Below, piece by piece: positions 36,290 to 55,284 of a stretch of DNA of 64,000 bases (position 1 is its first letter; each line of letters begins with the position of its first letter). Under the pieces are notes generated by a model that saw only the letters and a list, made by a program, of their open reading frames with translations, ran no database searches and had not been told where the DNA came from. The stretch is from Acidobacteriota bacterium (GTDB taxonomy: Bacteria > Acidobacteriota > UBA6911 > RPQK01 > JAJDTT01). Location: NCBI GenBank assembly GCA_965217775.1, contig CBDCJH010000002.1, positions 3,360,001 to 3,424,000 of the forward strand, in the 5' to 3' direction. Position numbers and translations under genes: made by a program.

Positions 36290-37810
<1,521 letters not shown>

Positions 37811-37884
37811 TTGTCTCGTCCTCTTGACTTGCAGCTCTGTCGAACCCGGATCCGGGAACGGCAGTCCGTTGCCGCGGCGGTATT

Positions 37885-38424
37885 CTAATCTCGGCTGATC
37901 CGCCGCCTGACCTCTTCCAACTGCGTCCGGATGGAGCCATCGTAGATGACCGATCCTACCTTGATCTTGAGCCCGCCGATGAGGGACTCATCCTGCTCAT
38001 AGGCGAGGCGAACCCGGGCCCGTGAAATCTCCGAAAGAACTTCTTCGAGGCGATTCCGAACCTCGGCGTCCAGTCCCCTCGCCGAGGTCACAACGCCCCG
38101 GACGACACCGGCTCGCTGGTCCATGGCCTCCGTGAAGGCTTCGGCGTATTCGTCGTATTCCCCGATTCGACCGTTCTCCAGCAGCACCAGGATGAAGTTG
38201 ACCGTGATCTCGGCCAGGGAGAGCCGGCCCCCCAACTCTTCCACGATCCGGCGCTTGGGAGCGAAGGGTATGGCCGGGCTCAGCAGCGTCTCCACCAACT
38301 CGGGGGACGCCTGCAGGGCGGTCCCGAACGAGTTCAGATCTTGCTGGACCCGCGTCTCCCGACCCTGTTGCACGGCTACCTGGGACAGGGCCCGAGCGTA
38401 TCTGCGTGCCCGCGACGAAGCCAT
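37885..38424 (-). CDS. atpH: ATP synthase F1 delta
   Basis: [23 protein letters not shown]. Confidence 0.93.
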
Positions 38425-38445
38425 TGACGGTTCCTTCCAACCCTC

Positions 38446-39024
38446 TCAGTTTCGGCTGTGGAGGTGCTCGACGGCCCGGCCTACGACCCGGGCGTCCTCT
38501 TCAGCCGTCAGCTCCCGACTCAACTTCTGCCGGGCCAGCCCCACGGCCAGATCGGCGGCATGGGACCGGAGCTCGATCCGGGCCACGCGTGTCAGCAACT
38601 GGATCTCCGTTTCCGCTCTCCGGGTCAGGCGGTCCACGTCCCGTTGGGACCGTTCCAGCACTCGCAGGCGCTCCGCCTCGGCTTCCTCGGCCGTGGTCTT
38701 CCTCATGCCCGCCAGCTCCTCGTCCAGCCCCTGCATCTGCCCCTGGACGACCGACAGCCTTGCTTCCGCCTCCTGCAAGGCCCGTCCCGCCGAGCTGATG
38801 TCTTCCTGTATTCCACGCTTGCGGTCGGCCAGAAACTGCCGCAGGGGAAGACGGAGAAAGTAGGCGATGATGCCCACCAGGACCGCCAGATTGAACCACC
38901 GGCCGGCGGTCTCCACCCATCCCCAGCCACTGCCCGAGGCGGCGACCAGGATCGGCGCCACCAGCAGCAACGCCAACCAGAGTCCCCCGTAGCTCCGCCG
39001 CGAACCTGTGCCTTGAGTTCCCAT
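38446..39024 (-). CDS. atpF: ATP synthase F0 subunit b (start uncertain)
   Basis: TM helix (RWFNLAVLVGIIAYF) plus coiled coil; operon position. Confidence 0.85.
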   Translation of the reverse strand: MGTQGTGSRRSYGGLWLALLLVAPILVAASGSGWGWVETAGRWFNLAVLVGIIAYFLRLPLRQFLADRKRGIQEDISSAGRALQEAEARLSVVQGQMQGLDEELAGMRKTTAEEAEAERLRVLERSQRDVDRLTRRAETEIQLLTRVARIELRSHAADLAVGLARQKLSRELTAEEDARVVGRAVEHLHSRN

Positions 39025-39220
39025 GGAGGCTTCCGCCTGATCGTTCACCTTCGTGCGGTCTTCATCGGCCCGTAGCGGCTGATGCCTGAGGCGTTCAGAC
39101 GACGGCTGGGAGAAGCCAACCGTTTCGTCGTGCCTGTTCGCCGGACCCGGGATGGACGCCGGGTTGCTGTTCACCCTCCGGAATAATCGGGATAAAATGA
39201 CCGGGGAGGATCGGTCCCCT

Positions 39221-39685
39221 TCACGCCCGGTCCAGAATCCTGTCGGCCAGGATTCGCGCTGTGTCCTCGGCTTCGCGAGTCAGTTGCCGCTTGGCCGAGA
39301 TCAGATCCGCTTCGATCTCACTCCTCGCATTGGCCAGCAGGACCTCGGCCTGCCGGCGCGCTTGCGCGACTCGGTTGTTTCCCTCTTTCAGCGCCTCGGT
39401 TCGAACCGATTCCGCCAGCTTGTAACCTGCCTGCCTCTCCTCCGCCAGCCTCTGCTGGTACTGTTCGTAGAGAGTCTGATGTTGATCCAGAATCTCCTGG
39501 ACTCGACCGCTCACCTGGGTGGTCCGCGCCCCCCGTTCGGCCAGGACTTGGAAAAGGGGACGAAAGAGAACCCGGTTGAGAATGAAGAGAGTGGTCAAAA
39601 ACACGGCCGCCGCAACCGGCAGCGTCCAATCTGGTGTCAGCAAGGTTCTCCCACTCCCGTCTCTAGACGGGGCATCTTCTAACAT
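39221..39685 (-). CDS. ATP synthase F0 subunit b' (start uncertain)
   Basis: PDWT..FILNRVLFRP..VLAER plus coiled coil; first gene of the operon. Confidence 0.82.
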   Translation of the reverse strand: MLEDAPSRDGSGRTLLTPDWTLPVAAAVFLTTLFILNRVLFRPLFQVLAERGARTTQVSGRVQEILDQHQTLYEQYQQRLAEERQAGYKLAESVRTEALKEGNNRVAQARRQAEVLLANARSEIEADLISAKRQLTREAEDTARILADRILDRA

Positions 39686-39801
39686 GATCCTCCGACGCAG
39701 GTCAAGAAATCGGGGGCGTCAGAGGAGTTCGTCGCCAATGTCACCATCGCCCCATACGCTTTACGAAATGGCTGGTGCCGAGGACTACGGTCATGGCCTG
39801 A

Positions 39802-42387
39802 ATGACGGAAATGCTAATCATGGATCCATGGGGAAAGTTCCAATCCCCCAACAACTTCCATCGTCTTGAGCATCATTGCGCGGATGTCGCGGCTTGTTTT
39901 GAAGCACTGGTTCGCGATCCCGTAATGCACTCTCGGTTCAAGCAGGCATCAGGTGTCGACGAGTTCTCGGTCACGACGGCAGCCCGTTTGGCCGTGCTGG
40001 TATTCCTGCACGATTTCGGCAAGTTGAACACTGGTTTTCAGTTCCAGGTATACGACCGTAGAGAGTTTCCCGGCGCGCCGCGGAAGTCCGGTCATATCGG
40101 CGAGGCCTTGCTGGCACCGAACGAGATCCTTGAGAGGCTTGGTCTTTTCGAGATCTTCGATTCCTGGGGAAACGCCGTGGATCCATTGCTTTGCGCGGCA
40201 CTTTCTCACCACGGGCGTCCCGCGCGCAGACCGACGCGTACCGGGACTGGTCCCCCGGAGATCTGGAAGCCTTTTTCCGGCTACGACCCAAGATCCGCCG
40301 CCACTCGGTTGCGTGAGCGGAGCCGCGCTTGGTTCCCACATGCGTTCCGGAATGGTCCCGAGTTACCCGATACCCCCGCGTTGGCGCATCTGTTTGCCGG
40401 GGTCGTCACCCTCGCGGATCAGATCGGATCGAACGAAGAATTTTTCAGATTTGTGCCCCATTCCGATCGACACTATATCGACCGGGCCCGCGATATCGCG
40501 GCCAGAGCGGTCGAAGAATTGGGTTTCCACCGAGCCGACCGGCCCCAGAATGCTCCGCCCACCGACATTCGAATACTCTTCGAATACGAAGAACCGCGCC
40601 CGTCGCAGAGCGCCGTGACCGATGCGCCGCTCGATACTCCGCTCCTGATCCTGGAGAGTGAAACCGGATCCGGGAAGACTGAGGCCGCGATCCTTCGTTT
40701 CGCCGCCCTCTGGCGCCGGGGACTCGTGGACGGGCTGTACTTTGCCGTGCCGACCCGCGCGGCAGCGAAACAACTGCACATTCGGATCTCCCGGGGTCTT
40801 GCGCGGCTCTTCACGGAAAACCGACAGGTGGAGACGGTCCTCGCGGTCCCAGGCTATCTCGTCGTCGGAACTGCCGAGGGGCGCCGGGTCGGCAGGTTCG
40901 ACGTGTTCTGGGAGGATAAACCTGACGAGGCGGCGCGCCTGGCGCGCTGGTCCGCGGAGAGCGCTCGAAAATTTCTGAGCGCCACCGCGGCGGTCGGGAC
41001 GGTCGATCAAGCGCTGCTTGGAGGGCTGAAGGTGAAGTGGGCTCATTTCCGTGCGGCTTCCCTGGCACGCAGCCTTCTCGTTGTGGACGAGGTGCATGCC
41101 AGCGACGCGTATATGACGGAAATTCTGCGCACCTTGCTCCAAGGACATCTGGATCTCGGCGGACACGCGCTCCTGATGTCGGCCACTCTCGGCGCCGTAG
41201 CTCGGACGAAGCTTGCAACAAGGGGACGAACCTGTCTTCCACCTCCCGCCGATGCGCAAGCTGTTCCGTATCCGGTGCTCACGCTCGCCGATGAAAGCGG
41301 TTCGCTCGAGACGCGACAGATCATTGGAGGCCAGTCGACTAGACGCGTGTCGATGAACCTGGAGCCGATCCTGGAGGATCCGACCGATATCGCAGTCCGC
41401 GCCATTGAGGCGGCTCGGCACGGGGCCAAGGTTCTCGTGGTTCGCAACACGGTCACCAGCGCTCAGGATGTTTTCCGGGCGCTCCTGGATCAGGGTGTTG
41501 GAGAAATCGCGTTGAGTGTAGCGGGAAATCCTGCTCTGCATCACAGTCGTTTCGCGGCTGAGGACCGAGCGTTGCTCGACGACGCCGTCGAGCGCGTTCT
41601 GGGAAAGAATCGCATCTCCAGGGGCGCGGTGGTCATCGGCACCCAGACCCTTGAACAGTCTCTCGACATTGACGCCGACCTCCTCATCTCGGACATTTGT
41701 CCGGTCGATGTCCTTCTCCAGCGGATCGGACGCCTGCATCGGCACCAGAGGGCCGATCGGCCACAAGACTTCAGGAAACCCATTTGCGTGGTGGTCACGC
41801 CGGAGGCGGGACTGGAGAGTGGGCTGGACGGAAGGCTCCTCCGCCATGGGCTGGGCGTCTCGGAACAGGGCGGCGTCTACCGCAACCTGCTCGTGCTTGA
41901 GGCAACGCGACGACTCATCTCCGAACACTCGATTTGGGCCATCCCTGGCATGAACAGGATGTTGGTGGAGGGTGCGACCCATCCCGAACTGTTGCGCGAA
42001 TTGGCGGAAACTCTCGGCGGCGATTGGCTGTCTCACGAGCAGAAGGCTTTCGGTCTAATCGCGGCGGAGGCAGGGGTTGGCCGGAACCATTCGTTCACCC
42101 GCAAGGAAAGGTTCAACGAGCGATTTTTGTTTTCCGATATAGACGAAAATGTACGGACTCGACTGGGCGACGACGGTCCGCGCATCGTGCTCGAGGGTCC
42201 CGTGACAGGTCCGTTCGGTAAACTCGTCCGGACCTTCGCTTTACCGGCGCACCTGTTCCGAGGATCCTTGCCGAATAAGGAGGAGATCGAAGCCGCCCGG
42301 GCCGTGCCGGGAAAGGACGAACTACTTCTGCTGGTCGGCGAACATCGGTTCGTATACGACCGGACCGGGATTCGAAGGAGGAGTTGA
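39802..42387 (+). CDS. cas3: CRISPR-associated helicase/nuclease Cas3 (type I-E)
   Basis: HD domain (LEHHCADV, LHDFGK); ETGSGKTE, DEVH, SAT, QRIGRLHRH. Confidence 0.95.
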   Translation: MTEMLIMDPWGKFQSPNNFHRLEHHCADVAACFEALVRDPVMHSRFKQASGVDEFSVTTAARLAVLVFLHDFGKLNTGFQFQVYDRREFPGAPRKSGHIGEALLAPNEILERLGLFEIFDSWGNAVDPLLCAALSHHGRPARRPTRTGTGPPEIWKPFSGYDPRSAATRLRERSRAWFPHAFRNGPELPDTPALAHLFAGVVTLADQIGSNEEFFRFVPHSDRHYIDRARDIAARAVEELGFHRADRPQNAPPTDIRILFEYEEPRPSQSAVTDAPLDTPLLILESETGSGKTEAAILRFAALWRRGLVDGLYFAVPTRAAAKQLHIRISRGLARLFTENRQVETVLAVPGYLVVGTAEGRRVGRFDVFWEDKPDEAARLARWSAESARKFLSATAAVGTVDQALLGGLKVKWAHFRAASLARSLLVVDEVHASDAYMTEILRTLLQGHLDLGGHALLMSATLGAVARTKLATRGRTCLPPPADAQAVPYPVLTLADESGSLETRQIIGGQSTRRVSMNLEPILEDPTDIAVRAIEAARHGAKVLVVRNTVTSAQDVFRALLDQGVGEIALSVAGNPALHHSRFAAEDRALLDDAVERVLGKNRISRGAVVIGTQTLEQSLDIDADLLISDICPVDVLLQRIGRLHRHQRADRPQDFRKPICVVVTPEAGLESGLDGRLLRHGLGVSEQGGVYRNLLVLEATRRLISEHSIWAIPGMNRMLVEGATHPELLRELAETLGGDWLSHEQKAFGLIAAEAGVGRNHSFTRKERFNERFLFSDIDENVRTRLGDDGPRIVLEGPVTGPFGKLVRTFALPAHLFRGSLPNKEEIEAARAVPGKDELLLLVGEHRFVYDRTGIRRRS

Positions 42388-42470
42388 CCGAACTTGCCAC
42401 ACAAAGAACTAGGGGCCGAACGTTACCGTTCCCCCTCCCCAGCGGGATGGGGACTACGAAACAATATCCC

Positions 42471-44054
42471 ATGCATAACCTCCTCTTTGACCCACTGATC
42501 CGAGTTCGCTTGACGGACGGCACAATCGAAGCGATGTCGTTACCCGACGTGTATGCAGCCTTGTCGGAAGACCGAGTCGCGGCCTTTCCTGCACTGCGGC
42601 CTCATCAACGCCACGCTTGGCATGCCTTCCTGGCCCAACTCGGTGTGATTGCGTTGCACGGAGCAGGCGAAGACACGCCGCCTCATACGGCGGCGGACTG
42701 GCGTGTGCTTTTTTGGGACCTGACGCCGGAGTTCGGCAATGAGGAACCCTGGCGGCTGATCGTCAATGACCCGGCTCGACCCGCCTTCATGCAGTCCCCC
42801 TCACCCGGGGGGTTCGACGACTATCGACGTCGCATAGTGACGCCCGACGACCTCGATATTCTGGTCACGGCGAAGAATCATGACGTTAAACAGACAATCG
42901 CCACTGGGGCATCGATCGACGACTGGATCTTCGCGTTGATCGATCTCCAGACCATGGCCGGCTTTCAGGGTGCCGGAAACTATGGCATCGCCCGTATGAA
43001 CGGTGGGTTTTCTGCGCGACCTTGCCTGGGCCTCGCCCCGGCTGACGGGGGTCCGGGTGCGCATTTCCTCCACGATTTGACCCGGATGCTCGCCGGTCGA
43101 GAAGCGTTGCTCCGAGACTACTCCGATTATTTCGATCCGGAGTTCGGGCTGCGGTTGATTTGGCTGGAGCCATGGGACGGCACCAGTTCCCTGGACTTGC
43201 GCAACCTGGACCCGTACTTCATTGAAATCTGCCGCCGGCTGCGGCTTCGACTGAACGGAAGTGAGGTGGTTGCCTGGATGGCGACGTCCAAGGTGAATCG
43301 CATCGCAGCCAAACAAGCACACGGTAGTCTTGGCGATTTCTGGACTCCGGTGGAAAGGAAAAACGGCAAGGCCCTATCTCTCTCGCAGGTTGGCTTTCGC
43401 TACGACCGACTTGCCAAGCTGCTTTTCGATGATGCTACGTTCAAACCTCCTCCGGCGATGGAGGTCTCCTCATCCCGGCCAGGACGGTGGCGGGTGATCG
43501 CGCGCGGTGTCGCCGGCGGGCAAGGCAAGACGGACGGGTACCACGAGCGCAACGACATCGCCTTCGACCCGACGACCGTGGGGGCCATGTTCAATCGTCG
43601 GCGACGAGACGTCCTGGCGCAGATTGCAGAGGCGCAGGTCGAAGAAATTCGGGAAGTGGAAAAGGCACTACGGTTCAGTGTCGCCGTGGCCGCCAGCGGT
43701 GGCAAGAACACCAGTGAACTCACCAAGACGGACAGAGCGCACGCCAATCCCTTCGCACGCCGCTTGGACGGCGCAGCGGACGCACAGTTCTTCTCCGCCC
43801 TCGAAAGCCGGTTCCACGCCGCAGACAGCAAGGCGGCCCGTGCCAGCCGCGTGGGGTTCGCGCGCCGTATGATCGCCGAAGCAAGGAAACTCCTGGACGA
43901 GGCGATCGAAACCGTTCCCTGTCCGGCGATCCGGCGCCATCGGGCACGAGCGCGGGGGATCAATGCGTTTTGGGGACGGCTCCGCCGACCGCAGAGCGTG
44001 TTCAGCGATCAACCCGAAATCTTCAACTCGAAGGAATCGAACGATGCCGCCTGA
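42471..44054 (+). CDS. casA: type I-E Cascade large subunit Cas8e/Cse1
   Basis: HNLLFDPLIRV start; LDPYFIEICRRLRL; operon position. Confidence 0.85.
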   Translation: MHNLLFDPLIRVRLTDGTIEAMSLPDVYAALSEDRVAAFPALRPHQRHAWHAFLAQLGVIALHGAGEDTPPHTAADWRVLFWDLTPEFGNEEPWRLIVNDPARPAFMQSPSPGGFDDYRRRIVTPDDLDILVTAKNHDVKQTIATGASIDDWIFALIDLQTMAGFQGAGNYGIARMNGGFSARPCLGLAPADGGPGAHFLHDLTRMLAGREALLRDYSDYFDPEFGLRLIWLEPWDGTSSLDLRNLDPYFIEICRRLRLRLNGSEVVAWMATSKVNRIAAKQAHGSLGDFWTPVERKNGKALSLSQVGFRYDRLAKLLFDDATFKPPPAMEVSSSRPGRWRVIARGVAGGQGKTDGYHERNDIAFDPTTVGAMFNRRRRDVLAQIAEAQVEEIREVEKALRFSVAVAASGGKNTSELTKTDRAHANPFARRLDGAADAQFFSALESRFHAADSKAARASRVGFARRMIAEARKLLDEAIETVPCPAIRRHRARARGINAFWGRLRRPQSVFSDQPEIFNSKESNDAA

Positions 44055-44616
44055 TGAAATGTTTCCGGCCACGGACAAAACGAGCGATACACCAGATCTC
44101 AGGCGCGTCATTCCCATGATCGCGGTCGAGATCGCTCGACTCGGGCCGGGACCGGCCGCAGCTCTACGTCGAGGTCCTCTCTCTGGCCCCGGAGCGGCCG
44201 CATTCTGGAAACTGACGGCGAGATACGTTCCCAGCGAGGCGGCGAAGAACGAATACGGATGGGCTGCGCTCATCCAGGCGATTACGATCTTGACACCGAA
44301 GGGGCGAGATCCAAACAAGAAATCGGCGCACGATCCCCGGGTGCCCTTGGGTAGAGCGCTGTACAAGTCAGTGTTCTCCGAGTTGCGCCTGGCCCGACTG
44401 CTCGGGGCGACCACGGAGCTGCGCCGACTGCTTGCGGTACGCGCCTGCCGACGCATGGCGGCCGCTGGACAGAACCGCTTTGATCTCGTGACTCTGGCCT
44501 TTTTCATCCTGTTCGGCGATGACCAGACAGACCGTAGAATCGCCCGTCACTACTACCGCACCGAAGCCACCGCCGGGCGCGAATCTCAAAAGGAGGAGGG
44601 CTCCACCGATGCCTGA
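44044..44616 (+). CDS. casB: type I-E small subunit Cas11/Cse2
   Basis: GPAAALRR, SELRLARLL, RIARHYY. Confidence 0.85.
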   Translation: MPPDEMFPATDKTSDTPDLRRVIPMIAVEIARLGPGPAAALRRGPLSGPGAAAFWKLTARYVPSEAAKNEYGWAALIQAITILTPKGRDPNKKSAHDPRVPLGRALYKSVFSELRLARLLGATTELRRLLAVRACRRMAAAGQNRFDLVTLAFFILFGDDQTDRRIARHYYRTEATAGRESQKEEGSTDA

Positions 44617-45745
44617 CGTTCGCTTTCTCCAAATTCACAGTCTGCATGGCTATTCGGCTGTGCTGCTGAACCGCGACGACTCCGGTCTCGCAAAACGCAT
44701 TACCTACGGCGGCACCATCCGCACCCGTGTGTCGTCGCAGTGCCTCAAGCGTCACTGGCGAACGGCCGATAGCGTCCACGCCCTGCAACGAATTGAGGGC
44801 GCCATCGCTGCAGTCCGTTCCCGGGAAACCGTCACCCGCCGAGTGATCGGGCCACTTGAGAATGCCGGTCACGATCCCGAATTGGTCACGGCGATAGAAA
44901 CCGCATTTCAGACCGCCGTTTACGGCGACAAGGGTGACAAGAGATCGAAGCGGCAACCTCTTCTGCTCGGTGAACCGGAAATCGCCTATCTTGCCGATGA
45001 AGCTCGCAAGATCGCGGACTCTCACATGCGAGATCCAAAAGCGGCTGGGGCCGCAGCAAAGGAGTGGGCCAAGAAGTCAAAGGCGAACATGAAAACTCTG
45101 CGCGATAATTGCTCGCTACCGGGCGGCATCATCGCCGCCTTGTTCGGCCGGATGGTGACGTCGGATGTCGAGGCCAATATCGATGCGGCGATCCATGTCG
45201 CTCACGCCTTCACCGTTCACGCGGAAGAGAGTGAGAGCGACTACTTCACCGTGGTCGACGATCTGCATCGCATCGAAGATGACGCCGGAGCCGACCACAT
45301 TGGCGAGACTGAACTGACCTCCGGTCTCTTTTACGGTTACGTCGTCGTCGACCGAGGAATGCTGCTCGAAAATCTCGGGGGCGACCTCGAAATGGCGGAA
45401 GAGGTCGTGGAACGGCTGATCCATTTGATCGCCACCGTCACGCCGGGAGCGAAGCTGGGAGCCACTGCCCCTTACGGGTATGCGTGTTGGATGATGGTCG
45501 AGACCGGCGACCGGCAGCCGCGCAGCTTGGCCGAGGCGTTTCGGCAACGCTGCCGGCCTGACATCAGCGAGGCCCAAAAAAAGGTGAGCCAACATCTGGA
45601 AAAGCTCGACGCAGCGTATGAAACCGGTGAATCGCGGCGGCTGATGAGCCTCGACACGGAGGCATTCATGCCCGGGGCAGAACGGCTCCCATTGGCGAAG
45701 CTTGCCAAATGGACTGGAACCGCAACGCGAGAGGGTGTCGCGTAA
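44609..45745 (+). CDS. cas7: type I-E Cas7
   Basis: LNRDDSG..K, RVSSQCLKRHWR, ALFGRM, DYFTVVDD. Confidence 0.95.
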   Translation: MPDVRFLQIHSLHGYSAVLLNRDDSGLAKRITYGGTIRTRVSSQCLKRHWRTADSVHALQRIEGAIAAVRSRETVTRRVIGPLENAGHDPELVTAIETAFQTAVYGDKGDKRSKRQPLLLGEPEIAYLADEARKIADSHMRDPKAAGAAAKEWAKKSKANMKTLRDNCSLPGGIIAALFGRMVTSDVEANIDAAIHVAHAFTVHAEESESDYFTVVDDLHRIEDDAGADHIGETELTSGLFYGYVVVDRGMLLENLGGDLEMAEEVVERLIHLIATVTPGAKLGATAPYGYACWMMVETGDRQPRSLAEAFRQRCRPDISEAQKKVSQHLEKLDAAYETGESRRLMSLDTEAFMPGAERLPLAKLAKWTGTATREGVA

Positions 45746-46461
45746 TGCGGTGGATGCATCTGCGGTTTCGTGCGCCGCTCGCGGCCTTCGGCGGTGAGGC
45801 GATCGACGCCCGCGGCGTGACTCGGAACTTTCCGGCTCAATCCATGCTGACCGGCCTGCTGGCCAACGCCCTCGGCTGGACGCGATCAATGCGCGGGGAG
45901 CATCAATCGCTGCAGGACCGCATCGTGTTCGCTACGTTGTGGGAGCGAGACCTCGGACTGAGCCGGATGACGGACTATCAGACGGCACAGCTCGGCAAGA
46001 AGGATCGAGCCTGGACCACCCGCGGCATGCCGCTTGGGAGAGCCGGCGGACCTGCGACTTATGCCGGGTCGCACCAGCGATGGCGCGATTACCACACTGA
46101 CCTGCGTTTGGCCGTAGTGCTGCGGCTTGAGCCCGCCGACGCATCGCCCACCCTGGAGGATCTGGCGAAGGCGCTCGACCGACCCTCACGGCCGTTGTTC
46201 ATCGGGCGCAAGTCTTGCTTGCCGTCCGCGCCGATCTTCACCGGTTGGGTGACACAAGCGGTTGATGCCCGGGCCGCCCTGCGGGCGGTCGCCCCGAAGG
46301 GAGATTCTGGTCTGCTCGCGTTCTGGCCCGAATCCGAGGGCACCCGCGGCGCTCACCGGACGATGAGTGTTACCGACGAGCGAAACTGGGCGAGCGGACT
46401 CCATGGCGGCGGGCGTCGTTTGTGCGAGGGCCGGCTCACCCCGGCGAGAAACGAGAAATGA
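45745..46461 (+). CDS. cas5: type I-E Cas5
   Basis: LRFRAPLAAFG, SMLTGLLANALG, DYQT, LFIGRKSC. Confidence 0.95.
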   Translation: MRWMHLRFRAPLAAFGGEAIDARGVTRNFPAQSMLTGLLANALGWTRSMRGEHQSLQDRIVFATLWERDLGLSRMTDYQTAQLGKKDRAWTTRGMPLGRAGGPATYAGSHQRWRDYHTDLRLAVVLRLEPADASPTLEDLAKALDRPSRPLFIGRKSCLPSAPIFTGWVTQAVDARAALRAVAPKGDSGLLAFWPESEGTRGAHRTMSVTDERNWASGLHGGGRRLCEGRLTPARNEK

Positions 46462-47243
46462 CGACTCATCTGATTTACGCGTTCCTCAGTATGCGAGCAT
46501 TCAACCGGTGGGCCGGCAACCGCGGGCTCATGCGCCACGGCTCATTCGACGAGGGCTATGCCCTTCACGTCCTTCTGTCCGCCATGTTCGGGAAGGCCGT
46601 CGTACAGCCGTTTCGACTATTTGCGTCTCCGCGGCGAATTGGTGCCGCGCTCTACGCCTATTCCGATGTGGACGCGGACGAGTTACGCAAGACGGCGGAA
46701 GCTGTGGCACCTCCGGACTGCCTTGCTGTGATCGATTGGCGGCAGATTCGATCGAAGCCTATGCCGTCCCCCTTTGAGACCTGTCGGCAGCTCGGTTTCG
46801 ATGTCCGGGTGCGGCCTGTGCGTCGGCTACGGCACGATCTCATGGATCCGCAGTCCAACCGGCTGATCTCGAAGGGCTCGGAGGTGGATGCGTTCAAGCT
46901 GCAAGCAATGCGACGGTTCCCGAACGGATGGGCTGATCCTCATAAGGCGGCTTCGAAGAACGGAATCAGGCGCGAGTCGGTCTACTCCGGCTGGCTCAGC
47001 GAACGGTTCGGCGATGCGGTCGCCATCGAGCACTGCAAGTTGGTGGCGTTCAAGCGAAGTCGTGTGGTTCGCGGCAAGGGCCGTGGTCCGGAGGGGCCGG
47101 ATGCGACCCTGCACGGAACACTTGCCGTTTCAAAACCAACGGATTTCAGCCGGATCTTGCGGAAAGGTGTCGGACGTCACCGCGCCTACGGATACGGCAT
47201 GTTGCTTCTGCGGCCACCAAAGACAGAAGGGCACACCCAGTGA
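46458..47243 (+). CDS. cas6e: type I-E Cas6e/Cse3
   Basis: GYALH; C-terminal GVGRHRAYGYGMLLL glycine-rich loop. Confidence 0.92.
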   Translation: MTTHLIYAFLSMRAFNRWAGNRGLMRHGSFDEGYALHVLLSAMFGKAVVQPFRLFASPRRIGAALYAYSDVDADELRKTAEAVAPPDCLAVIDWRQIRSKPMPSPFETCRQLGFDVRVRPVRRLRHDLMDPQSNRLISKGSEVDAFKLQAMRRFPNGWADPHKAASKNGIRRESVYSGWLSERFGDAVAIEHCKLVAFKRSRVVRGKGRGPEGPDATLHGTLAVSKPTDFSRILRKGVGRHRAYGYGMLLLRPPKTEGHTQ

Positions 47244-48130
47244 TGCTGAAAGGACGTCTCGGCCTTGAAACTGCCCGGATCCCGCATGCGGATAGAGCTG
47301 GGCTGCTCTGGCTCTCCCGTGGCGCGCTGACCGCGCGAGACGGGACCCTGTCCTTTGAACGCGGCCGACAGGTTACAGAAAACAACCCTTTGGAACCGGG
47401 GCATTACGCCATTCCGTTTCAGGCCGTCTCGATGATACTCCTCGGCCCGGGATCCACGGTCAGTCATGATGCGCTGCGTCTATTGGCCCGTCACGGCACT
47501 GCCCTCGCGGCCGTCGGAGTGGATGGTGTCCGATGCTATACGGCTCCTCCATTGATGGCCGACCGGTCGGAACTCGCGCGACGACAGGTGCGCGCCTGGG
47601 CCGACTTGGATACTCGGCTCCAAATCGCCCGTCGGATGTACGCCTGGCGCCTGGGTGAGGTCCTACCTCGCCGCGACATCGCGGCGCTACGCGGCATGGA
47701 GGGGGCCAGGATGAAGCGAACATATAGGCTGATGGCGTCGAAATATGGTATCGAGTGGCGGGGACGGCGCTACGATCGGAAGCGTCCAATGGAGAACGAC
47801 TCACCGAACCAAGCGCTGAATCATGCGTCGAGCGCGGTGCAAGCCGCTGCCGCCATTGCCGTTGCCGCAACTGCGACGATTCCGCAATTGGGCTTCATCC
47901 ATGAACACCCGGGAGAGTCTTTCGTTCTGGACATCTCCGACCTCTACCGCGACGTTGTAACCGTTCCCTGTGCCTTCCGCGCAGCCAAGAGGGTCACGGA
48001 ACGACCAGCAGAGAATATTGAGCGGGTCACTCGACGTCTCACAGGGCAAGCGCTGGCCCGTGAAGGAATCATTCCCGCGATGATCAACCGGATCAAGGCC
48101 CTATTTACGAAACAGCCGAAAGGGAGGTGA
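47240..48130 (+). CDS. cas1: type I-E Cas1
   Basis: LLGPGSTVSH, LRGMEGARM, LGFIH, SFVLDISDLY. Confidence 0.95.
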   Translation: MMLKGRLGLETARIPHADRAGLLWLSRGALTARDGTLSFERGRQVTENNPLEPGHYAIPFQAVSMILLGPGSTVSHDALRLLARHGTALAAVGVDGVRCYTAPPLMADRSELARRQVRAWADLDTRLQIARRMYAWRLGEVLPRRDIAALRGMEGARMKRTYRLMASKYGIEWRGRRYDRKRPMENDSPNQALNHASSAVQAAAAIAVAATATIPQLGFIHEHPGESFVLDISDLYRDVVTVPCAFRAAKRVTERPAENIERVTRRLTGQALAREGIIPAMINRIKALFTKQPKGR

Positions 48131-48137
48131 AGGCACG

Positions 48138-48431
48138 ATGCCGATGGCGATGGTCGTCACCCGAAACGTCGAGGCTCGCTATCGCGGTTTCCTCGCCTCC
48201 ACCATGCTGGAAATTGCCCCAGGCATGTACGTGGCTCCGAACCTGACCGCCAGCGTGCGAACACGTGTATGGACCGTATTGTCGAAGTGGTGGGCGGCGC
48301 TCGGCTCGGGGTCGATCGTCATGGTGTGGCGGGACAGTAAAGCTACCGGTAATCTCCGCATCGAGACCCTTGGCGAACCCCCGAAAGAGATAGTGGACGC
48401 CGACGGAATCCTTCTCGTAAGACGCGGATGA
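48138..48431 (+). CDS. cas2: type I-E Cas2
   Basis: RGFLASTMLEIAPGMYV..VDADGILL. Confidence 0.93.
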   Translation: MPMAMVVTRNVEARYRGFLASTMLEIAPGMYVAPNLTASVRTRVWTVLSKWWAALGSGSIVMVWRDSKATGNLRIETLGEPPKEIVDADGILLVRRG

Positions 48432-48479
48432 CTGCGGCTCCGTTCGATCGACGTTCTTTGAAAATTTAAAAATACAAGG
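48432..48479 (+). promoter_or_regulatory. CRISPR leader (short, AT-rich)
   Basis: GTTCTTTGAAAATTTAAAAATACAA between cas2 and the first repeat. Confidence 0.75.
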
Positions 48480-50888
48480 GGTTCCCCCGTACACGCGGGG
48501 ATAGACCTTTGATGGTGACTTCTCATGACCGCCATCACCGGGTTCCCCCGTACACGCGGGGATAGACCGGTGTCGGCATTCGAGGTGCTGGCGGGGCAAT
48601 CGGGTTCCCCCGTACACGCGGGGATAGACCATAGGAGTTTGTCGGCGGTATCGACCCTCACCCGGGTTCCCCCGTACACGCGGGGATAGACCCCGGGGTG
48701 GAGGGATGCTTGAGTATTCCAGACGGGTTCCCCCGTACACGCGGGGATAGACCGTTGTCGGGCCGCGGGGCCAACAAGGGATATCGGGTTCCCCCGTACA
48801 CGCGGGGATAGACCGCATCAAAGAGCGAGACTGAAATCGTCCACAGTGGTTCCCCCGTACACGCGGGGATAGACCTCCTCACGGCGTGAGAATTCGATGG
48901 TGTTCCCCGGTTCCCCCGTACACGCGGGGATAGACCCGCCTGGGGCAGAGGCTGACGCCTGGGGCATGGGGTTCCCCCGTACACGCGGGGATAGACCCTG
49001 GCTCGGCAACGCCTATCGGTGCTATCGCCGGGTTCCCCCGTACACGCGGGGATAGACCCTCAGGCAACCTTGGACCTTCCCACGCCTCAGCGGTTCCCCC
49101 GTACACGCGGGGATAGACCCTGGCAAATCAAATGCTTCAACAAGCGTATCAAGGTTCCCCCGTACACGCGGGGATAGACCCTCAGGCAACCTTGGACCTT
49201 CCCACGCCTCAGCGGTTCCCCCGTACACGCGGGGATAGACCCTGGCAAATCAAATGCTTCAACAAGCGTATCAAGGTTCCCCCGTACACGCGGGGATAGA
49301 CCCGGCACAGCCGGAGGAAGAGCCGGGTTCCGAGGGGTTCCCCCGTACACGCGGGGATAGACCGAAGTACGATTGCCCATTTGTGAGGCCGTCCACGGTT
49401 CCCCCGTACACGCGGGGATAGACCGAGGCAGACCCCGAACCGATCCGAACCGCTCCCGGTTCCCCCGTACACGCGGGGATAGACCCTCCTTGAGAGCGTC
49501 CCTGACCCGCTGCTCCTGGGTTCCCCCGTACACGCGGGGATAGACCGTATCCGTGAGACATGAGGGTTTCCTCCTTGAGGGTTCCCCCGTACACGCGGGG
49601 ATAGACCCGGAACCGGGCCCGTCACGGTTGACCAAGAAGGGGTTCCCCCGTACACGCGGGGATAGACCCTGGCCAAAGAGATGCTGGAGGTCCTCCGCAC
49701 GGGTTCCCCCGTACACGCGGGGATAGACCTTTGGAGGGGCCCGAAGAAAGTGGCGGAGAATCGGTTCCCCCGTACACGCGGGGATAGACCCATGATGTGG
49801 CTCCGGCCGGGCACGTCGAAAATGGTTCCCCCGTACACGCGGGGATAGACCCGAGTGCGGCCGCGTCGTCGAAGGCGAGGTATCGGTTCCCCCGTACACG
49901 CGGGGATAGACCCTGATTGCTCCATCCCGATTCGGAATTGATACGGGTTCCCCCGTACACGCGGGGATAGACCCTGGAGACGGGTGAGGACGGAGCGTGC
50001 GTGTGGGGTTCCCCCGTACACGCGGGGATAGACCTCGACCGGGCCAGATCCGGCACTCCCAGACCTTGGTTCCCCCGTACACGCGGGGATAGACCTGTTC
50101 ATTATGCGACCTTGCCCATGACCCGGTGGGTTCCCCCGTACACGCGGGGATAGACCCACCTGCAGGAAAGCATCAGGTATTACACGGACGGTTCCCCCGT
50201 ACACGCGGGGATAGACCCAGCTTCGGCCAAGACCTCAGCGACGACATTAAGGTTCCCCCGTACACGCGGGGATAGACCCTCGATATTTCGAGCCTCCGCA
50301 TACCTTCGGGCGGTTCCCCCGTACACGCGGGGATAGACCCTGCAAAGTCGGGCGGAATAAGTACACGAGCTAGGTTCCCCCGTACACGCGGGGATAGACC
50401 CTTCATGCCGATCCGGATCGAGTCTCTGTCCGAGGTTCCCCCGTACACGCGGGGATAGACCGACGCACGTATCGATCACGCCGCCGCTAAGCTGGGTTCC
50501 CCCGTACACGCGGGGATAGACCTCAGGCAATAGACAATCGCAACGATCAGTCCCGGGTTCCCCCGTACACGCGGGGATAGACCCTGGCTCAAGCTGATTT
50601 GGACTCCCGTCGGAAGGGTTCCCCCGTACACGCGGGGATAGACCATAGGAGTTTGTCGGCGGATCTACCCTCACCCGGGTTCCCCCGTACACGCGGGGAT
50701 AGACCCCAGGGCGGTCATAACGAGGGCGAGTGCATCGTGGTTCCCCCGTACACGCGGGGATAGACCCCAGGGCGGTCATAACGAGGGCGAGTGCATCGTG
50801 GTTCCCCCGTACACGCGGGGATAGACCCATGCCGGCCGGCGCGAACCCGGCGCTCGGGCGGGTTCCCCCGTACACGCGGGGATAGACC
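48480..50888 (+). CRISPR. type I-E CRISPR array, 40 identical 28-nt repeats and 39 spacers (33 nt; spacers 2 and 3 are 34 nt)
   Basis: Repeat GGTTCCCCCGTACACGCGGGGATAGACC at a 61-nt period; stem CCCCGT/GCGGGG. Confidence 0.98.
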
Positions 50889-51234
50889 ATGGGCGCGTGC
50901 CCTCGGGGCGAACACGCAGGTCGTCCGTCTGACTCAGCGCACAGCCTCGAAGCAGCGCAAGAAACACCGGGATCTGGATCTCGACGACTACCGAACGCGC
51001 TTGCCGGACACCCTGCGCTCTCCAGACCTCGTCATCGATGACACGGGGCACTGGAATCGTCCAGGGATCACTCTGGATTTCGTGACCTATGGCTCACAAG
51101 GGAGGATCTGGAATTCGGTCATCGCGGAGGACGACAAGGGCCATGCGCGCCTGGCGTCATTTTAATAGACGGGCCATGAAGACATCGATCGCACCCTCAA
51201 TCGCGGCAAAGTGTTGCTCGATCTCAGGAAATGA
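50889..51234 (+). pseudogene. fragment of a phage MuF-type C-terminal PBECR2-like RNase domain, fused directly to the last repeat; internal TAA-TAG at 51163-51168
   Basis: ALGANTQVVRLTQRTASKQRKKHRDLDLDDYR..LPDTL..ARLASF**TGHEDIDRTLNRG resembles Mu-like minor-head-protein C-terminal domains (from recall). Confidence 0.6.
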
Positions 51235-51367
51235 ATTCGAGAGGGAGGTGCCGGGATTTCGCCGTTAGGCATCCGCTCCCGGCGGGCGCCCGAGCCCAGT
51301 ATAGCAGCGGCGACCACCTCGATAGATCAGGGACTCCGGAGGCGGGTCGTACTATCCACGGACCGCT

Positions 51368-51602
51368 GTTCCCCTGGACTCCCTTTCGCCGTCATTTCAC
51401 TGTGTAGGCGTGGAAAAGATCCGAGATCAGAGACAAACGGAGGAGAGATGAGCGGGGATTCTTGGATATCTGCCGATCGTCCCGGCCAGCGATCGGACGC
51501 AAGATAGCACGAGTCCACGAGGAGGGTCAATTTTTCTAGCGGAACCGCGGAACCGGTTCCCCCTATACTCCCATTCGCCCTCCGTTCACTGTGGCAGGCA
51601 TG
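51368..51602 (+). repeat. imperfect direct repeat pair of about 45 bp (51368-51412, 51556-51602)
   Basis: Shared blocks CCCCT..ACTCCC.TTCGCC.TC..TTCACTGTG..AGGC.TG. Confidence 0.8.
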
Positions 51603-51612
51603 ACGCCGAAGA

Positions 51613-51762
51613 AGGGTTCCCCCGTACACACGGGGATATGGTGGTCATGGATGTCTACGAGGAGATTGTCCGGAGGGTTCCCCCGTACACACGGGGATAT
51701 GTTGAGGCTCGGATCGATTCCCATTCCGCACAGAAGGGTTCCCCCGTACACACGGGGATATG
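51613..51762 (+). CRISPR. atypical mini-array: 3 repeats AGGGTTCCCCCGTACACACGGGGATATG, 2 spacers of 33 nt
   Basis: Identical 28-nt units at 51613, 51674 and 51735 (61-nt period); variant of the main repeat. Confidence 0.92.
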
Positions 51763-51789
51763 CCTGCCCAATCTTGCTGGCATCAAAGC

Positions 51790-51990
51790 GTTGGCGGCCA
51801 ACAACTACCGTCATGTGGCACGTCAGGAGTCCCAGATTGAATCCACACAATTGCAGTAGCCGCTTGCGCAGCTTGGGACGGCCCCGGGCGTAGACCTCGA
51901 TCAACCCTCCCGCCATGAACTGATGCGCGTACGAGTCGTTCCGCCGGTTCAAACCGCTCATTCTGTAACGAGGTCCTCAGGATCGTTTCT
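51790..51990 (-). mobile_element. degenerate C-terminal remnant of an IS1182-like transposase
   Basis: SYAHQFMAGGL..RKRLLQLCGFNLGLL resembles the ERSFAH..GG..RG..KR....FNLGLL C-terminus; frameshifted. Confidence 0.55.
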
Positions 51991-52185
51991 TTTCCATAGC
52001 CTTGGTACGGTTTCAAGTTATCGGGGACGCTCGCGAATTTTCGCCACAGGCTGATAGCCTGAATCGCTCGCCGCGTCGGTGAGCCTATGATGAAAAAATC
52101 ATATCGCCGGACCTTTGTGGTCGTACTATCGAAGTCTCCCGGACACAGGCGGCGCTGGGCACAGCCGGCCGCATCAGGAGGATCC

Positions 52186-55100
52186 GTGCTTCCCGTGAGC
52201 GCGTGGTTCGCCCTGATTGCGGTTTTGCTTTTGTCCATGCCGGCGCTTGCCCAGAACCGGGCGACGACCGCCGAGATCACCGGCCGGGTCGAAGACGCCA
52301 CCGGCGGCGTGTTGCCCGGCGGCACGGTGACCGTCGTCAACCTCGACAACGGCCTGACCCGCTCCGCCGTGTCCGACGGTACGGGCGCCTACAGTGTCAT
52401 GCTGCTGCCCCCCGGCCGGTATGACGTCCGCGCCGAGCTGCCAGGCTTCAGCGCCGGAAAGCTCGACAAGGTGACCATGACCGTCGGCGCCAGCCGGACC
52501 ATCAACTTCGCCCTCCAGCCCGAGGGCGTGGCGGAGGAGGTCACGGTGACCGCGCAGACCTCGGCCGTCGAAACCACCACCGATACGTCCGACGTCACGC
52601 TCGACCGCCAGGCCATCTCGAACCTGCCGATCAACGGGCGGCGGTTCCACGATTTCGTCTCCTTGACGCCGACCGCGCAGGTCGAGCCTCAGCGCGGACA
52701 GATTTCCCTGGCCGGACAGCGCGGCATCAACGGCAACATCAGCATTGACGGCGTCGACTACAACCAACCGTTTTTCGGCGGCATCCGCGGGGGCGAGCGT
52801 TCGCAGTTCACGTTCACGATTCCCCAAGAGGCGATCCGGGAGTTCCGGGTCGTCAAGGCGGGCTACTCGCCCGAGTTCGGCCGGTCGACCGGTGGGATCG
52901 TCAACGCCATCACCGAGTCGGGAACCAACGCCACCCACGGGTCGGCGTTCTACCTCCTGCGGCCCGAGCAGTTCGCGGCGCGCAACGCGTTCGGCCAGGA
53001 GGCGGCGCCGACGCAACACCAGTTCGGCGGGTCCCTGGGCGGCCCGCTTGTCCGAGACCGGGTGTTCTACTTCGCCGCCTATGAGCAACAGGAGTTCAAG
53101 GCGCCGCGCGAGGTGCGCTTCGCGCGGCTCGACGGCTTCACTCCGACGCCGGGCAGCCGGGAAGGCTACGACCACTATCGGGGCCTCGAGACCCCGTTCG
53201 AGGTGACCAACGACGCCAGAGCATGGCTGGGGCGCGTCGACGTCAACCTGCCGCGGGGGAACCGCTTGAACGTCCGTTACAACGGCAGCGCCAACCGGGC
53301 CCTCAACTCCGACGGCGTCGGGGGCGTCATCACTCCGACCACCTCTCGCTCCCTCGAAACGAACGGCACGGAGGAGGACTCGACGCAGACGGCAGTCGGC
53401 CAGTTCATGAGCGCTCCGTCATCCAACCTCCTGTTCGAGCTGCGCGGGCAATATTCGCGGGAGGATCGGCCGCGTTCGGCTAATGCTCTCAAGCCGCTCG
53501 TCGATCTGTCGCTCGGAGAATTCGGGACCCGCAGCTTCCGTCCGACGACACAATTCGACTGGCGGGCGCAGGCAGGCGGCAACCTGACCTGGCTCGCCGG
53601 GGCGCACGGCGTGAAGGCGGGCTTCGACTACAACCACGTCTTCATCGACCAGACGTTCGGCTTCTTCCAGAACGGCGGCTATCTCGTCTTCGGATCCGAT
53701 GTCGAGACGACGCTGGACATCATCGGCGGCGGCGGCGCCATTCCGAACCGGTTCGACTCGCGGTCGCTGACTTACCTTCAGCAGATCGGCAATCTGAAGA
53801 CGTCGTTCGCGACCGACGAGATCGGACTGTTCGTGCAGGACGAGTGGCGCGCGGCGCCGACCCTGACGGTCAACTACGGCCTGCGCTGGGACGGGCAGTT
53901 CAATCCGGCCCCGGACGCCGACAACGACATGCTGCTCGGTCAACTGCGCGGCGTCACCTTCCCCATCGGCCGCACGGTCGACCCGACGAAAATTCCGAGC
54001 AGCAGTCTGCAGTTCGGTCCGCGGGCCGGCTTCGCGTGGGATCCGACCGGCGGCGCGAAGACGGTGGTGAGGGGGTTCGCCGGCATCTACTACGCGCGGA
54101 CCCCGCTTCTGCTCCTGGCCGGTCCGATGAACAACTTCCGCGTGCCGCCCGGTGACGTGACGGTGGCCCTGCCGTTCCGCGTCCCGCCGGAGAATCCGAA
54201 CGACACCCTGTACGAGCAGATGAAGCTGATCGGGATCGATCTCAACGAGCGCACGCTCGACAGGCTGCCGACGCTCACGCCGGACCAGATGACGGCCATC
54301 GCGACCGCGCTCGGAATCGACAACAACCCGTTCGCCGGCGCCCGCGTCACCATGATTCAGGAGGACTTCAGGAACCCGATGGCCAGACAGGTTGGGGCCG
54401 GCGTGCAGCACGAGATCAGCCCCGGCTGGTCGCTGGGCGCCGACGTGCTCGTCGTCGACACCATCCGCCTGGAACGCAACCGCGACCTCAACGTACCGCT
54501 ACCGACCGTGCGGCGCGACGATCCCGCGCAACGGCCGTTCTTCGGCCTGCGGAGCGGGACGGCGCGACCGGTTCCGGGACTCGACAGTGTGACGGTCCGC
54601 GAGTCGACCGCGTCGGCGCTCTACCGTGCGCTGACGGTCCGCTCGGAGATCCGCCGCCCCTGGGGACAGTTCAACGCCTACTACGTGCTGTCGAAGAACG
54701 AGTCCAACGACGACAACGAACGGTGGGCGGGGGGAGTGTCTTACGAGAACGGGTACGACCTGGCCTCAGAATACGGTCCGAGCACGCTCGATCGCCGGCA
54801 CCAGTTCCACGTGACCGGCGTGGTCATGCTGCCCGGCGCCGTCGACTTCTCGACCGGGATGTACATCCTCTCGGGCGCACCGTTCGACGCGCGCATGGGC
54901 ACGGATTCGAACCAGGATCGGGGCGGCGCCGACCGTCCCCTCAGCGCACCCGGCGTGCCGTTCACCCGAAACGCGTTCCGCGACGAACCGATTGCCGACA
55001 TCAACCTTCGGGTGCAAAAGCGATTCTCGCTCGGCGGGACCCGGCAGGCACTCGTATCGCTGGAGTTCTTCAACCTCTTCAACCGCGACAACGTCACGCT

Positions 55101-55284
55101 CAACCAGGGTTTCTCCACCGTTGCCAACTACTGCGCCAGTTCGCGCGACTTGGCCTGTGGCCTGGGCGGACGGCCGTCGAACCTCAACTTCGCCCAGACC
55201 CGCGGCGGAGACGGCGAGTATCTGACAGGGAACATCCCGGGACCGCCCTTACAGATGCAGATCGGCTTCCGGCTGCTGTTTTGA
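52186..55284 (+). CDS. TonB-dependent receptor (Oar-type)
   Basis: GTG after AGGAGG; signal peptide; NLPINGRRF, EAIREFRVV..YSPEFGRSTGG, FVQDEWR; terminal IGFRLLF. Confidence 0.92.
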   Translation: MLPVSAWFALIAVLLLSMPALAQNRATTAEITGRVEDATGGVLPGGTVTVVNLDNGLTRSAVSDGTGAYSVMLLPPGRYDVRAELPGFSAGKLDKVTMTVGASRTINFALQPEGVAEEVTVTAQTSAVETTTDTSDVTLDRQAISNLPINGRRFHDFVSLTPTAQVEPQRGQISLAGQRGINGNISIDGVDYNQPFFGGIRGGERSQFTFTIPQEAIREFRVVKAGYSPEFGRSTGGIVNAITESGTNATHGSAFYLLRPEQFAARNAFGQEAAPTQHQFGGSLGGPLVRDRVFYFAAYEQQEFKAPREVRFARLDGFTPTPGSREGYDHYRGLETPFEVTNDARAWLGRVDVNLPRGNRLNVRYNGSANRALNSDGVGGVITPTTSRSLETNGTEEDSTQTAVGQFMSAPSSNLLFELRGQYSREDRPRSANALKPLVDLSLGEFGTRSFRPTTQFDWRAQAGGNLTWLAGAHGVKAGFDYNHVFIDQTFGFFQNGGYLVFGSDVETTLDIIGGGGAIPNRFDSRSLTYLQQIGNLKTSFATDEIGLFVQDEWRAAPTLTVNYGLRWDGQFNPAPDADNDMLLGQLRGVTFPIGRTVDPTKIPSSSLQFGPRAGFAWDPTGGAKTVVRGFAGIYYARTPLLLLAGPMNNFRVPPGDVTVALPFRVPPENPNDTLYEQMKLIGIDLNERTLDRLPTLTPDQMTAIATALGIDNNPFAGARVTMIQEDFRNPMARQVGAGVQHEISPGWSLGADVLVVDTIRLERNRDLNVPLPTVRRDDPAQRPFFGLRSGTARPVPGLDSVTVRESTASALYRALTVRSEIRRPWGQFNAYYVLSKNESNDDNERWAGGVSYENGYDLASEYGPSTLDRRHQFHVTGVVMLPGAVDFSTGMYILSGAPFDARMGTDSNQDRGGADRPLSAPGVPFTRNAFRDEPIADINLRVQKRFSLGGTRQALVSLEFFNLFNRDNVTLNQGFSTVANYCASSRDLACGLGGRPSNLNFAQTRGGDGEYLTGNIPGPPLQMQIGFRLLF

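Follow-up and report, generated by a model that had tools for sequence, protein, structure and literature searches.

An interrupted type I-E CRISPR-Cas array

The stretch of DNA studied here (64,000 nt of contig CBDCJH010000002.1 from the Acidobacteriota assembly GCA_965217775.1; hereafter, the window) carries a CRISPR-Cas island whose array is broken, after its fortieth repeat, by a 726-bp segment that opens with what appears to be the end of a phage toxin gene. All eight cas open reading frames (ORFs) of the island had Pfam matches (Cas3_HD/Cas3 C-terminal, CRISPR_Cse1, CRISPR_Cse2, Cas_CT1975, Cas_Cas5d, CRISPR_assoc, Cas_Cas1 and Cas_Cas2CT1978), and these eight families, with a leader and an array of ~61-nt period after them, define the locus as a type I-E CRISPR-Cas system. 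The repeat, GGTTCCCCCGTACACGCGGGGATAGACC (28 nt), occurs in the main array in 40 copies with zero mismatches, the first starting at 48480 and the last at 50861, at a spacing of 61 nt (62 nt in two instances). We took the plus strand as the transcribed one from the position of cas2 and the leader and from the likeness of this repeat to that of the Escherichia coli I-E system. The features of the locus are collected in Table 1.

Table 1. Features of the CRISPR-Cas island and of the segment that interrupts its array (window coordinates).
Feature	Position	Strand	Description
CRISPR-Cas island	39722..52151		12.4 kb; holds operon, array, insert and array end
cas operon	39802..48431	+	complete type I-E: cas3, cse1, cse2, cas7, cas5, cas6e, cas1, cas2
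cas1	47240-48130	+	part of operon
cas2	48138-48431	+	part of operon
Leader	48432..48479	+	48 nt, AT-rich, ends ...ACAAGG at first repeat
Main array	48480..50888	+	40 repeats of 28 nt, 39 spacers of 33-34 nt
Repeat 40	50861..50888	+	perfect copy of GGTTCCCCCGTACACGCGGGGATAGACC
Non-array segment	50889..51614		726 bp, in a spacer slot
Pseudogene	50890..51234	+	3'-terminal ~115 codons of a MuF-toxin gene, with a predicted BECR-fold, PBECR2/MuF_C-like C-terminal domain; without start codon
Adjacent in-frame stops	51163..51168	+	TAA TAG; relatives have Y/H/C, then E/K/R/D etc.
Non-coding remainder	51235..51614		380 bp, two diverged ~95-nt copies inside
Cut-off array end	51613..51762	+	variant 28-nt unit AGGGTTCCCCCGTACACACGGGGATATG in three copies, starting at 51613, 51674 and 51735; two 33-nt spacers
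Cut-off-end spacers	51641-51673, 51702-51734	+	33 nt each
Ancestral terminal repeat	51737..51764	+	counterpart of the sole degenerate terminal repeat of the related locus L051; G16A in both
Trailer	51765..51961	-	remnant (C-terminal part) of an IS5-type transposase gene; common to L051

An earlier note on this DNA, made from its letters alone, had drawn attention to the absence of a repeat 33 nt past the one at 50861, and this is indeed the case: nothing repeat-like begins again before 51615, 754 nt from the start of repeat 40. The note had also taken repeat 40 for the terminal repeat and its perfection for an anomaly. The repeat is perfect, but it is not terminal, since the array resumes at 51613-51764, and a perfect last repeat is common: the last detectable repeat has the consensus sequence in 19 of the 49 loci with the same repeat that we compared (17 distinct places). 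The intervening segment is single-copy (a search of its own genome returned the self-match alone) and found no match in any of 40 relatives. Its base composition does not mark it out, its GC content being 59-60%, that of the genome 62% and that of the spacers 60%. The frame at its beginning, having no start codon and containing an in-frame TAA-TAG pair, is a dead remnant. We regard the segment, with high confidence, as a phage remnant inside the array, neither a gene nor an artefact.

The segment begins with the remnant of a MuF toxin gene

The start-less frame with two adjacent stops near its end that the earlier note had described is there, and it is open from within the array as stated, from 50782 to 51165 with a GTG at 50791. 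From 50890 onward it has 91 sense codons, the TAA TAG pair, 21 further sense codons and a TGA at 51232-51234. Both internal stops, in which the earlier note saw a possible neutralisation of an RNase read through from the precursor of the CRISPR RNAs, could have arisen by one change of two adjacent bases, for example from TAC GAG to TAA TAG.

A search of 1.84 billion representative proteins (E <= 1e-3) gave 9 matches, of which 5 are true relatives (76-226 aa) and the other 4, repetitive proteins, were discarded on inspection; a profile search of a collection of 5.8 billion clusters gave 12 relatives. Scored with a hidden Markov model built from 13 relatives, the window row excluded, the read-through frame reached 128.7 bits (E 1.5e-41); judged from its sequence, it is a real gene remnant. 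Three of the 12 relatives (314-376 aa) carry PF04233 (Phage_Mu_F) upstream of the domain, the remaining ones mostly beginning within the MuF-to-toxin linker, and there is a full-length form of 412 aa (P0021), in the same 90% cluster as P0012. Because relatives carry PF04233 upstream and the full-length form is of this size, the frame corresponds to the final ~115 residues of a C-terminally extended MuF protein some 410 residues long. The MuF domain itself was not found in the window frame, which begins at the toxin domain and has the CRISPR repeat upstream; neither did we find other MuF genes in the same genome. The toxin-type domain was found in 1 of 137 genomes of the class.

Several features bear on the nature of the domain. 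Four columns of an alignment of 14 sequences (K, H, R and H) show a conservation of 90% or more, and the window frame keeps all four as K21, H26, R35 and H54, which are candidate catalytic residues. The relative P0002 gave an AlphaFold2 model with a pLDDT of 90.8, fold searches pointed to the BECR RNases (the group of barnase, EndoU, colicin E5/D and RelE), and the nearest Atlas clusters by language-model features were PBECR2 (52% of members) and MuF_C (62%), with a score of 0.92 and 185-187 of 256 features shared, a resemblance that serves as a lead and is not an alignment. These predictions point to a PBECR2/MuF_C-like BECR RNase toxin domain, PBECR2 being the nearest named family by language-model features. 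At E <= 1, no Pfam PBECR or MuF_C family matched the window frame or the relatives P0002, P0003, P0004, P0006 and P0010; the sole recurring Pfam row for the frame and its relatives was LPD13, at an E value of 0.12-0.18 and below the cut-off, and a PHROGs scan of the frame returned no family. The earlier proposal of a PBECR2 RNase at the C-terminus of a MuF head protein is thus upheld as regards the MuF C-terminal position and, as a prediction, the BECR fold, with PBECR2 as nearest family, but not by any direct Pfam match.

Orphan C-terminal toxin fragments of CDI/Rhs systems, reportedly treated by Poole et al. in 2011, are likewise start-less pieces consisting of the toxin domain only; they lie downstream of a full toxin gene and are accompanied by immunity genes. 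The window fragment differs from them in adjoining a CRISPR repeat, in a genome without a MuF gene. Other parallels are the MuF polymorphic toxins of temperate phages, described as proteins with a MuF domain and a C-terminal toxin domain (Jamet et al. 2017, PMC5576092). As far as the accounts of these toxins (PMC5576092), of PBECR2 (PF18810) and of MuF_C (PF18819) go, they share with our fragment a domain located C-terminally in PF04233 proteins and, by prediction, a small BECR-type nuclease-toxin fold. The window copy departs from them by having no MuF part, no start, two stops and no recognisable immunity ORF downstream, and is a truncated derivative of a MuF polymorphic toxin, not in its present form a member.

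The frame could in principle still work as a gene or as an accessory of the CRISPR system, with a truncated toxin made by read-through from the precursor of the CRISPR RNAs (crRNAs) or from the GTG inside the array; it is open from 50782, well preserved, and retains the candidate catalytic residues. Nevertheless, ~70% of the parent gene is gone, the two stops cut off the last 22 residues, no promoter-like site on the plus strand and no immunity-type ORF were seen, and the segment is absent from the related locus L051 (see below) and from all the relatives searched, which makes a working gene very improbable. Considered as a gene, the fragment is dead, and it matters little to the cell.

For the last 380 bp of the segment we found no coding signal and no relative, and none of the ORFs tried in it had a Pfam match. 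It contains two ~72%-alike copies of a ~95-nt element (51321-51412 and 51503-51602), with a duplication score of 56 against a mean of 21 and a maximum of 34 in shuffled sequences; this element matched no Rfam family, and no convincing structure common to both copies emerged. Promoter, terminator and Rfam scans gave nothing relevant (the NrsZ rows were array repeats, far under the gathering score). We also looked for decayed repeats within the segment and rejected the best candidate, GGTTCCCCCTATAC at 51555, whose score of 20 is at chance level (shuffles: mean 18.5, maximum 28). No integrase-like ORF was present among the ORFs listed and scanned, and no further partner, MuF or prophage, was found in the genome. 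As a separate observation, the 12-mer GGTCGTACTATC occurs at 51345-51356 in the segment and at 52119-52130 in the host flank, upstream of a TonB-type receptor gene, and nowhere else in the 6.4-Mb genome, and the local alignment score of the two sites was no higher than that of shuffles.

An uninterrupted relative and other split arrays

The repeat itself led us to L051, a locus in a Terriglobia metagenome-assembled genome (MAG) in which this island sits at the corresponding place in the chromosome. Identity to the window is 93.8% for cas1, 93.5% for cas2 and the leader (319/341) and 85.5% for the flank. In L051 the array consists of 17 canonical repeats at 61-nt spacing and then one degenerate terminal repeat with G16A; the 726-bp segment is absent, the canonical repeats continuing to this terminal repeat. 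Since the L051 terminal repeat and trailer align to 51737-51958 of the window at 85.6% identity (190/222), the last variant repeat of the window can be equated with the ancestral terminal repeat, and since the L051 array runs uninterrupted up to that same repeat, the phage DNA of the window lies inside the array, in a spacer slot. The segment and two variant repeat-spacer units would have been either gained in the lineage of the window or lost in that of L051. The form of the L051 terminal repeat argues against a plain hybrid produced by repeat-repeat deletion.

The split layout is not unique to this genome, because four loci with the same repeat in other phyla (L024, L041, L050 and L060) also have non-repeat DNA, 0.27-2.3 kb long, that separates a distal repeat from the main array. 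In these loci the distal repeat is solitary and the gap before it measures 268-2319 nt. In three Binatia loci the gap DNA contains small ORFs that resemble one another (MEHxII...GVGIGxGQLxLIxWGL...), and in L041 also integrase-like and BrnT-like ORFs, as judged by eye. In three further loci (L023, L065 and L068) the first array repeat has a degenerate copy 1288-1290 nt upstream of it, directly in front of an ORF resembling, to the eye, the start of cas1; so read, cas1-cas2 and the leader lie there between two repeats.

The cut-off end of the array

Beyond the segment, the array ends in three variant units (AGGGTT...ATATG) whose borders both lie 2 nt upstream of the borders of the main-array repeat. 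This paired 2-nt shift is consistent with a second cut placed by measuring from the first, and the joint movement of both borders bears on how I-E Cas1-Cas2 measures repeats. The repeat that flanks the insert on the right, GGTTCCCCCGTACACACGGGGATATGGT, differs from that on the left, GGTTCCCCCGTACACGCGGGGATAGACC, at G16A and at the last four positions.

The first spacer of this end (51641-51673) is identical over 33/33 nt to the host chromosome (C2:1750831-1750863), the match stopping exactly at the unit borders. Its target is the start of an XdhC_CoxI/XdhC_C gene, preceded by AAAAT, and 32-33 nt of it are 94-100% conserved in 8 of 8 genus relatives. This looks like a genuine Cas1-Cas2 acquisition by the stranded terminal repeat, with the end of the insert (...GAAGAAG) taking the place of the leader (...ACAAGG). 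The spacer is a self-targeting one, in a locus with an intact I-E system. Because of this perfect self-match beside intact cas3 and Cascade genes, crRNAs from the cut-off end are suggested to be non-functional, perhaps owing to their altered handle (ATATG... versus ATAGACC). The locus would offer a natural case of a terminal repeat that, severed from its leader, can still gain spacers.

Non-canonical integration by Cas1-Cas2 and the formation of neo-CRISPR arrays are said to have been described by Nivala, Shipman and Church in 2018, with normal-size spacers inserted. The cut-off end resembles such arrays in its off-leader spacer insertion (33-nt spacers, a 28-nt duplication and a makeshift leader), whereas a 726-bp insert is not known to arise in that way.

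The junction in contigs of the sequencing runs

The joint between repeat 40 and the phage DNA could conceivably be an assembly chimera in which the array end was fused to a co-sequenced phage contig, CRISPR repeats being known to break assemblies. We looked for it in the contigs of four runs (X1-X4), all belonging to a single sequencing study; these runs may include the source sample. One contig of 779 nt, present in both X1 and X2, equals 50861-51639 with 0 differences and so runs from repeat 40 through the segment into a variant repeat; its depth (18.3 in X1 and 13.6 in X2) equals that of the chromosomal flank (19.9 and 14.3). X3 and X4 gave partial contigs of the segment. These contigs reach 28 nt to the left of the joint, that is, the repeat, which falls short of the 31 letters set for bridging; they rule out a chimera with a phage contig and do not by themselves tie spacer 39 to the segment. 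The genome, moreover, is assembled in 2 contigs and has no other MuF sequence. Because contigs from four runs hold the junction, we consider that the segment is no mis-assembly, and the chimera that the earlier note had raised against its own reading is extremely improbable.

A contig of X4 (324 nt, depth 4.2) joins 51609 to 51732 and omits both spacers of the cut-off end. It may represent a strain without the two spacers or a graph artefact of an exact 31-nt repeat, since the ambiguity in it is 31 nt, the same length as an identical 31-mer that occurs twice, and it was not used as evidence.

How the segment may have reached the array

The position of the joint can be read from the protein alignment: homology to MuF proteins begins at a tryptophan (W) encoded by 50890-50892, which puts the joint no more than 1-2 nt from the repeat's 3' edge. 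Upstream of this residue the end of the repeat encodes G-D-R-P, while the family has (D/E)-R-(E/K)-W as its consensus. Microhomology at the joint is an idea only, given that 2 residues match and that AGA is an improbable phage codon.

The earlier note had proposed comparing phage DNA with the segment, to see whether homology starts at 50889, and related arrays with its first 33 nt. Neither comparison produced a counterpart. No donor was found in GenBank phages by tblastn or in metagenome contigs by an alignment-based search; an exact 25-mer from the first 33 nt of the insert is absent from metagenome and viral contig collections, and peptide patterns searched for in genome contigs gave nothing useful on donor DNA or context. 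Of 80 Mu-like viral loci, 2 matched weakly at the protein level, one with 28.7% over 108 aa and the other with 47% over 38 aa; the downstream 630 bp had no match in any of them. The 33-mer at the start of the slot (ATGGGCG...CAGGT) does not occur among the spacers of the 49 loci that have this repeat, L051 included (best match, 13 nt); its first base is A, which starts 2 of the 39 array spacers, C starting 24. There is no second copy at the other end of the insert, since 51582-51614, the last 33 nt ahead of the next repeat, bear no relation to the 33-mer. Since no donor DNA was found, we leave the route of arrival undecided and weigh several.

Our tentative preference, which we hold at slightly less than even confidence, goes to a homology-poor (illegitimate or microhomology-based) joining or deletion with one of its breakpoints at the edge of the repeat, a route that calls for no special assumptions. 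DNA of a Mu-like phage would have recombined onto the distal array; most of the phage, together with whatever spacer then lay there, would have been lost and the product fixed. The old terminal repeat would thereby have been severed from the leader and would later have gained the two 33-nt spacers, with the ...GAAGAAG end of the insert as a makeshift leader. To this whole explanation, comprising split array, MuF remnant, homology-poor joining and later spacer gain, we give about even chances.

Several points weigh against it. The left breakpoint falls within 1-2 nt of the border between repeat and spacer, a coincidence for which we estimate a random chance of ~3-8% in a 61-nt period, and a mechanism specific for that border would predict such a flush left joint. 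As no donor phage DNA was found, the breakpoints are not readable at the nucleotide level, and the right end is not placeable, since the last 380 bp have no relative. Finally, the four runs come from one study that perhaps includes the source sample, and are in that respect not independent of the assembly.

One border-specific mechanism is recombination between a spacer and its protospacer. The spacer after repeat 40 would have matched a phage MuF gene, homologous recombination would have joined the phage to the array, and a later deletion or an illegitimate second joint would have removed the rest. Such recombination between spacers and phage protospacers reportedly moves CRISPR loci in staphylococci, as Varble et al. 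are said to have shown in 2019 (Nat Microbiol). It predicts phage homology from the first base of the spacer slot, as seen on the left, and the array bears other signs of recombination (spacers 10-11 = 12-13, 37 = 38, 3 ~ 36). The two situations are alike in that a repeat is followed by phage DNA starting at the spacer start, and differ in that we have here a 726-bp stump in a chromosomal array, not a transducing genome, and one copy in place of two. The failure of the 33-mer to appear as a spacer in L051 or elsewhere, the absence of the 25-mer from the contig collections and the rarity of A as first base all speak against this route, and the unrelated right end would require a further border-precise event. 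We consider it possible but rather unlikely.

A second such mechanism is aberrant integration by Cas1-Cas2, which would have inserted a long phage fragment as an oversized 'spacer' at the distal repeat, after which recombination between repeats would have removed the duplicate repeat and the neighbouring spacer. The I-E Cas1-Cas2 complex measures prespacers of ~33 bp and acts at the leader, and we know of no established case in which it inserted hundreds of base pairs in vivo. On the other hand, the insert sits in a spacer slot flush with the left repeat, as this route predicts for both borders, cas1 and cas2 are intact, and the gain of a 33-nt spacer with duplication of a 28-nt repeat at the cut-off end indicates that integration away from the true leader has occurred in this locus. 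The repeats that flank the insert are not duplicates of each other, which obliges this explanation to include the extra recombination step, and we judge it improbable.

There is, further, a small chance of a broader scenario in which the system's own integrase, or breaks made by Cas proteins at repeat borders, trapped a gene-sized piece of phage DNA whose end became a new leader; the stranded repeat would then be a mis-registered site that gained a self-targeting spacer, tolerated thanks to its altered handle. If this were true, CRISPR arrays would regularly capture, at the borders of their repeats, DNA of much more than spacer length.

A different kind of phage insertion in an array is that of PhiAP1.1 in Streptococcus pyogenes, a whole prophage that integrates reversibly and site-specifically within a type II-A repeat (Varble et al. 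2020, 10.1101/2020.10.09.333658). As that system is presented in the source, both cases have phage DNA within an array that separates spacers and is tied to their gain or loss; the window segment differs in being a mid-gene fragment of 726 bp, with no integrase or att arm.

The window locus is a naturally fixed and well-preserved joint between a repeat border and a phage gene, for which a close relative displays the uninterrupted state. Given a donor phage or intermediate strains, it could serve to separate illegitimate joining, spacer-guided homologous recombination (a route by which CRISPR loci may move) and off-size products of the integrase.

Other features of the array and the island

Within the main array, spacers 10-11 recur as spacers 12-13 (a 122-nt exact duplication, 49031-49274), spacer 37 is identical to spacer 38 (50706-50799), and spacer 3 (34 nt, at 48631) is a near-copy of spacer 36 (33 nt, at 50645) with an altered middle. 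Downstream of the cut-off end, 51808-51945 in the trailer is ~75% identical to many copies in the genus, a long one of which (L151) carries DUF772. Between this insertion sequence (IS) remnant and the host flank, the window has ~125 bp (51962-52086) that are absent in L051.

In 6 of 8 genus relatives, 46-2335 bp separate the sequences that flank the island (37001-39721 and 52152-55284), and the repeat is present in 1 of 9 genus genomes, that of the window only. The distribution of the repeat core, along with the absence of the island in the 8 genus relatives, suggests that one I-E system may have spread horizontally across phyla: this core is shared by MAGs that bear the labels Caldilineaceae, Dehalococcoidia, Binatia, Entotheonella, Thermodesulfobacteriota and Terriglobia.

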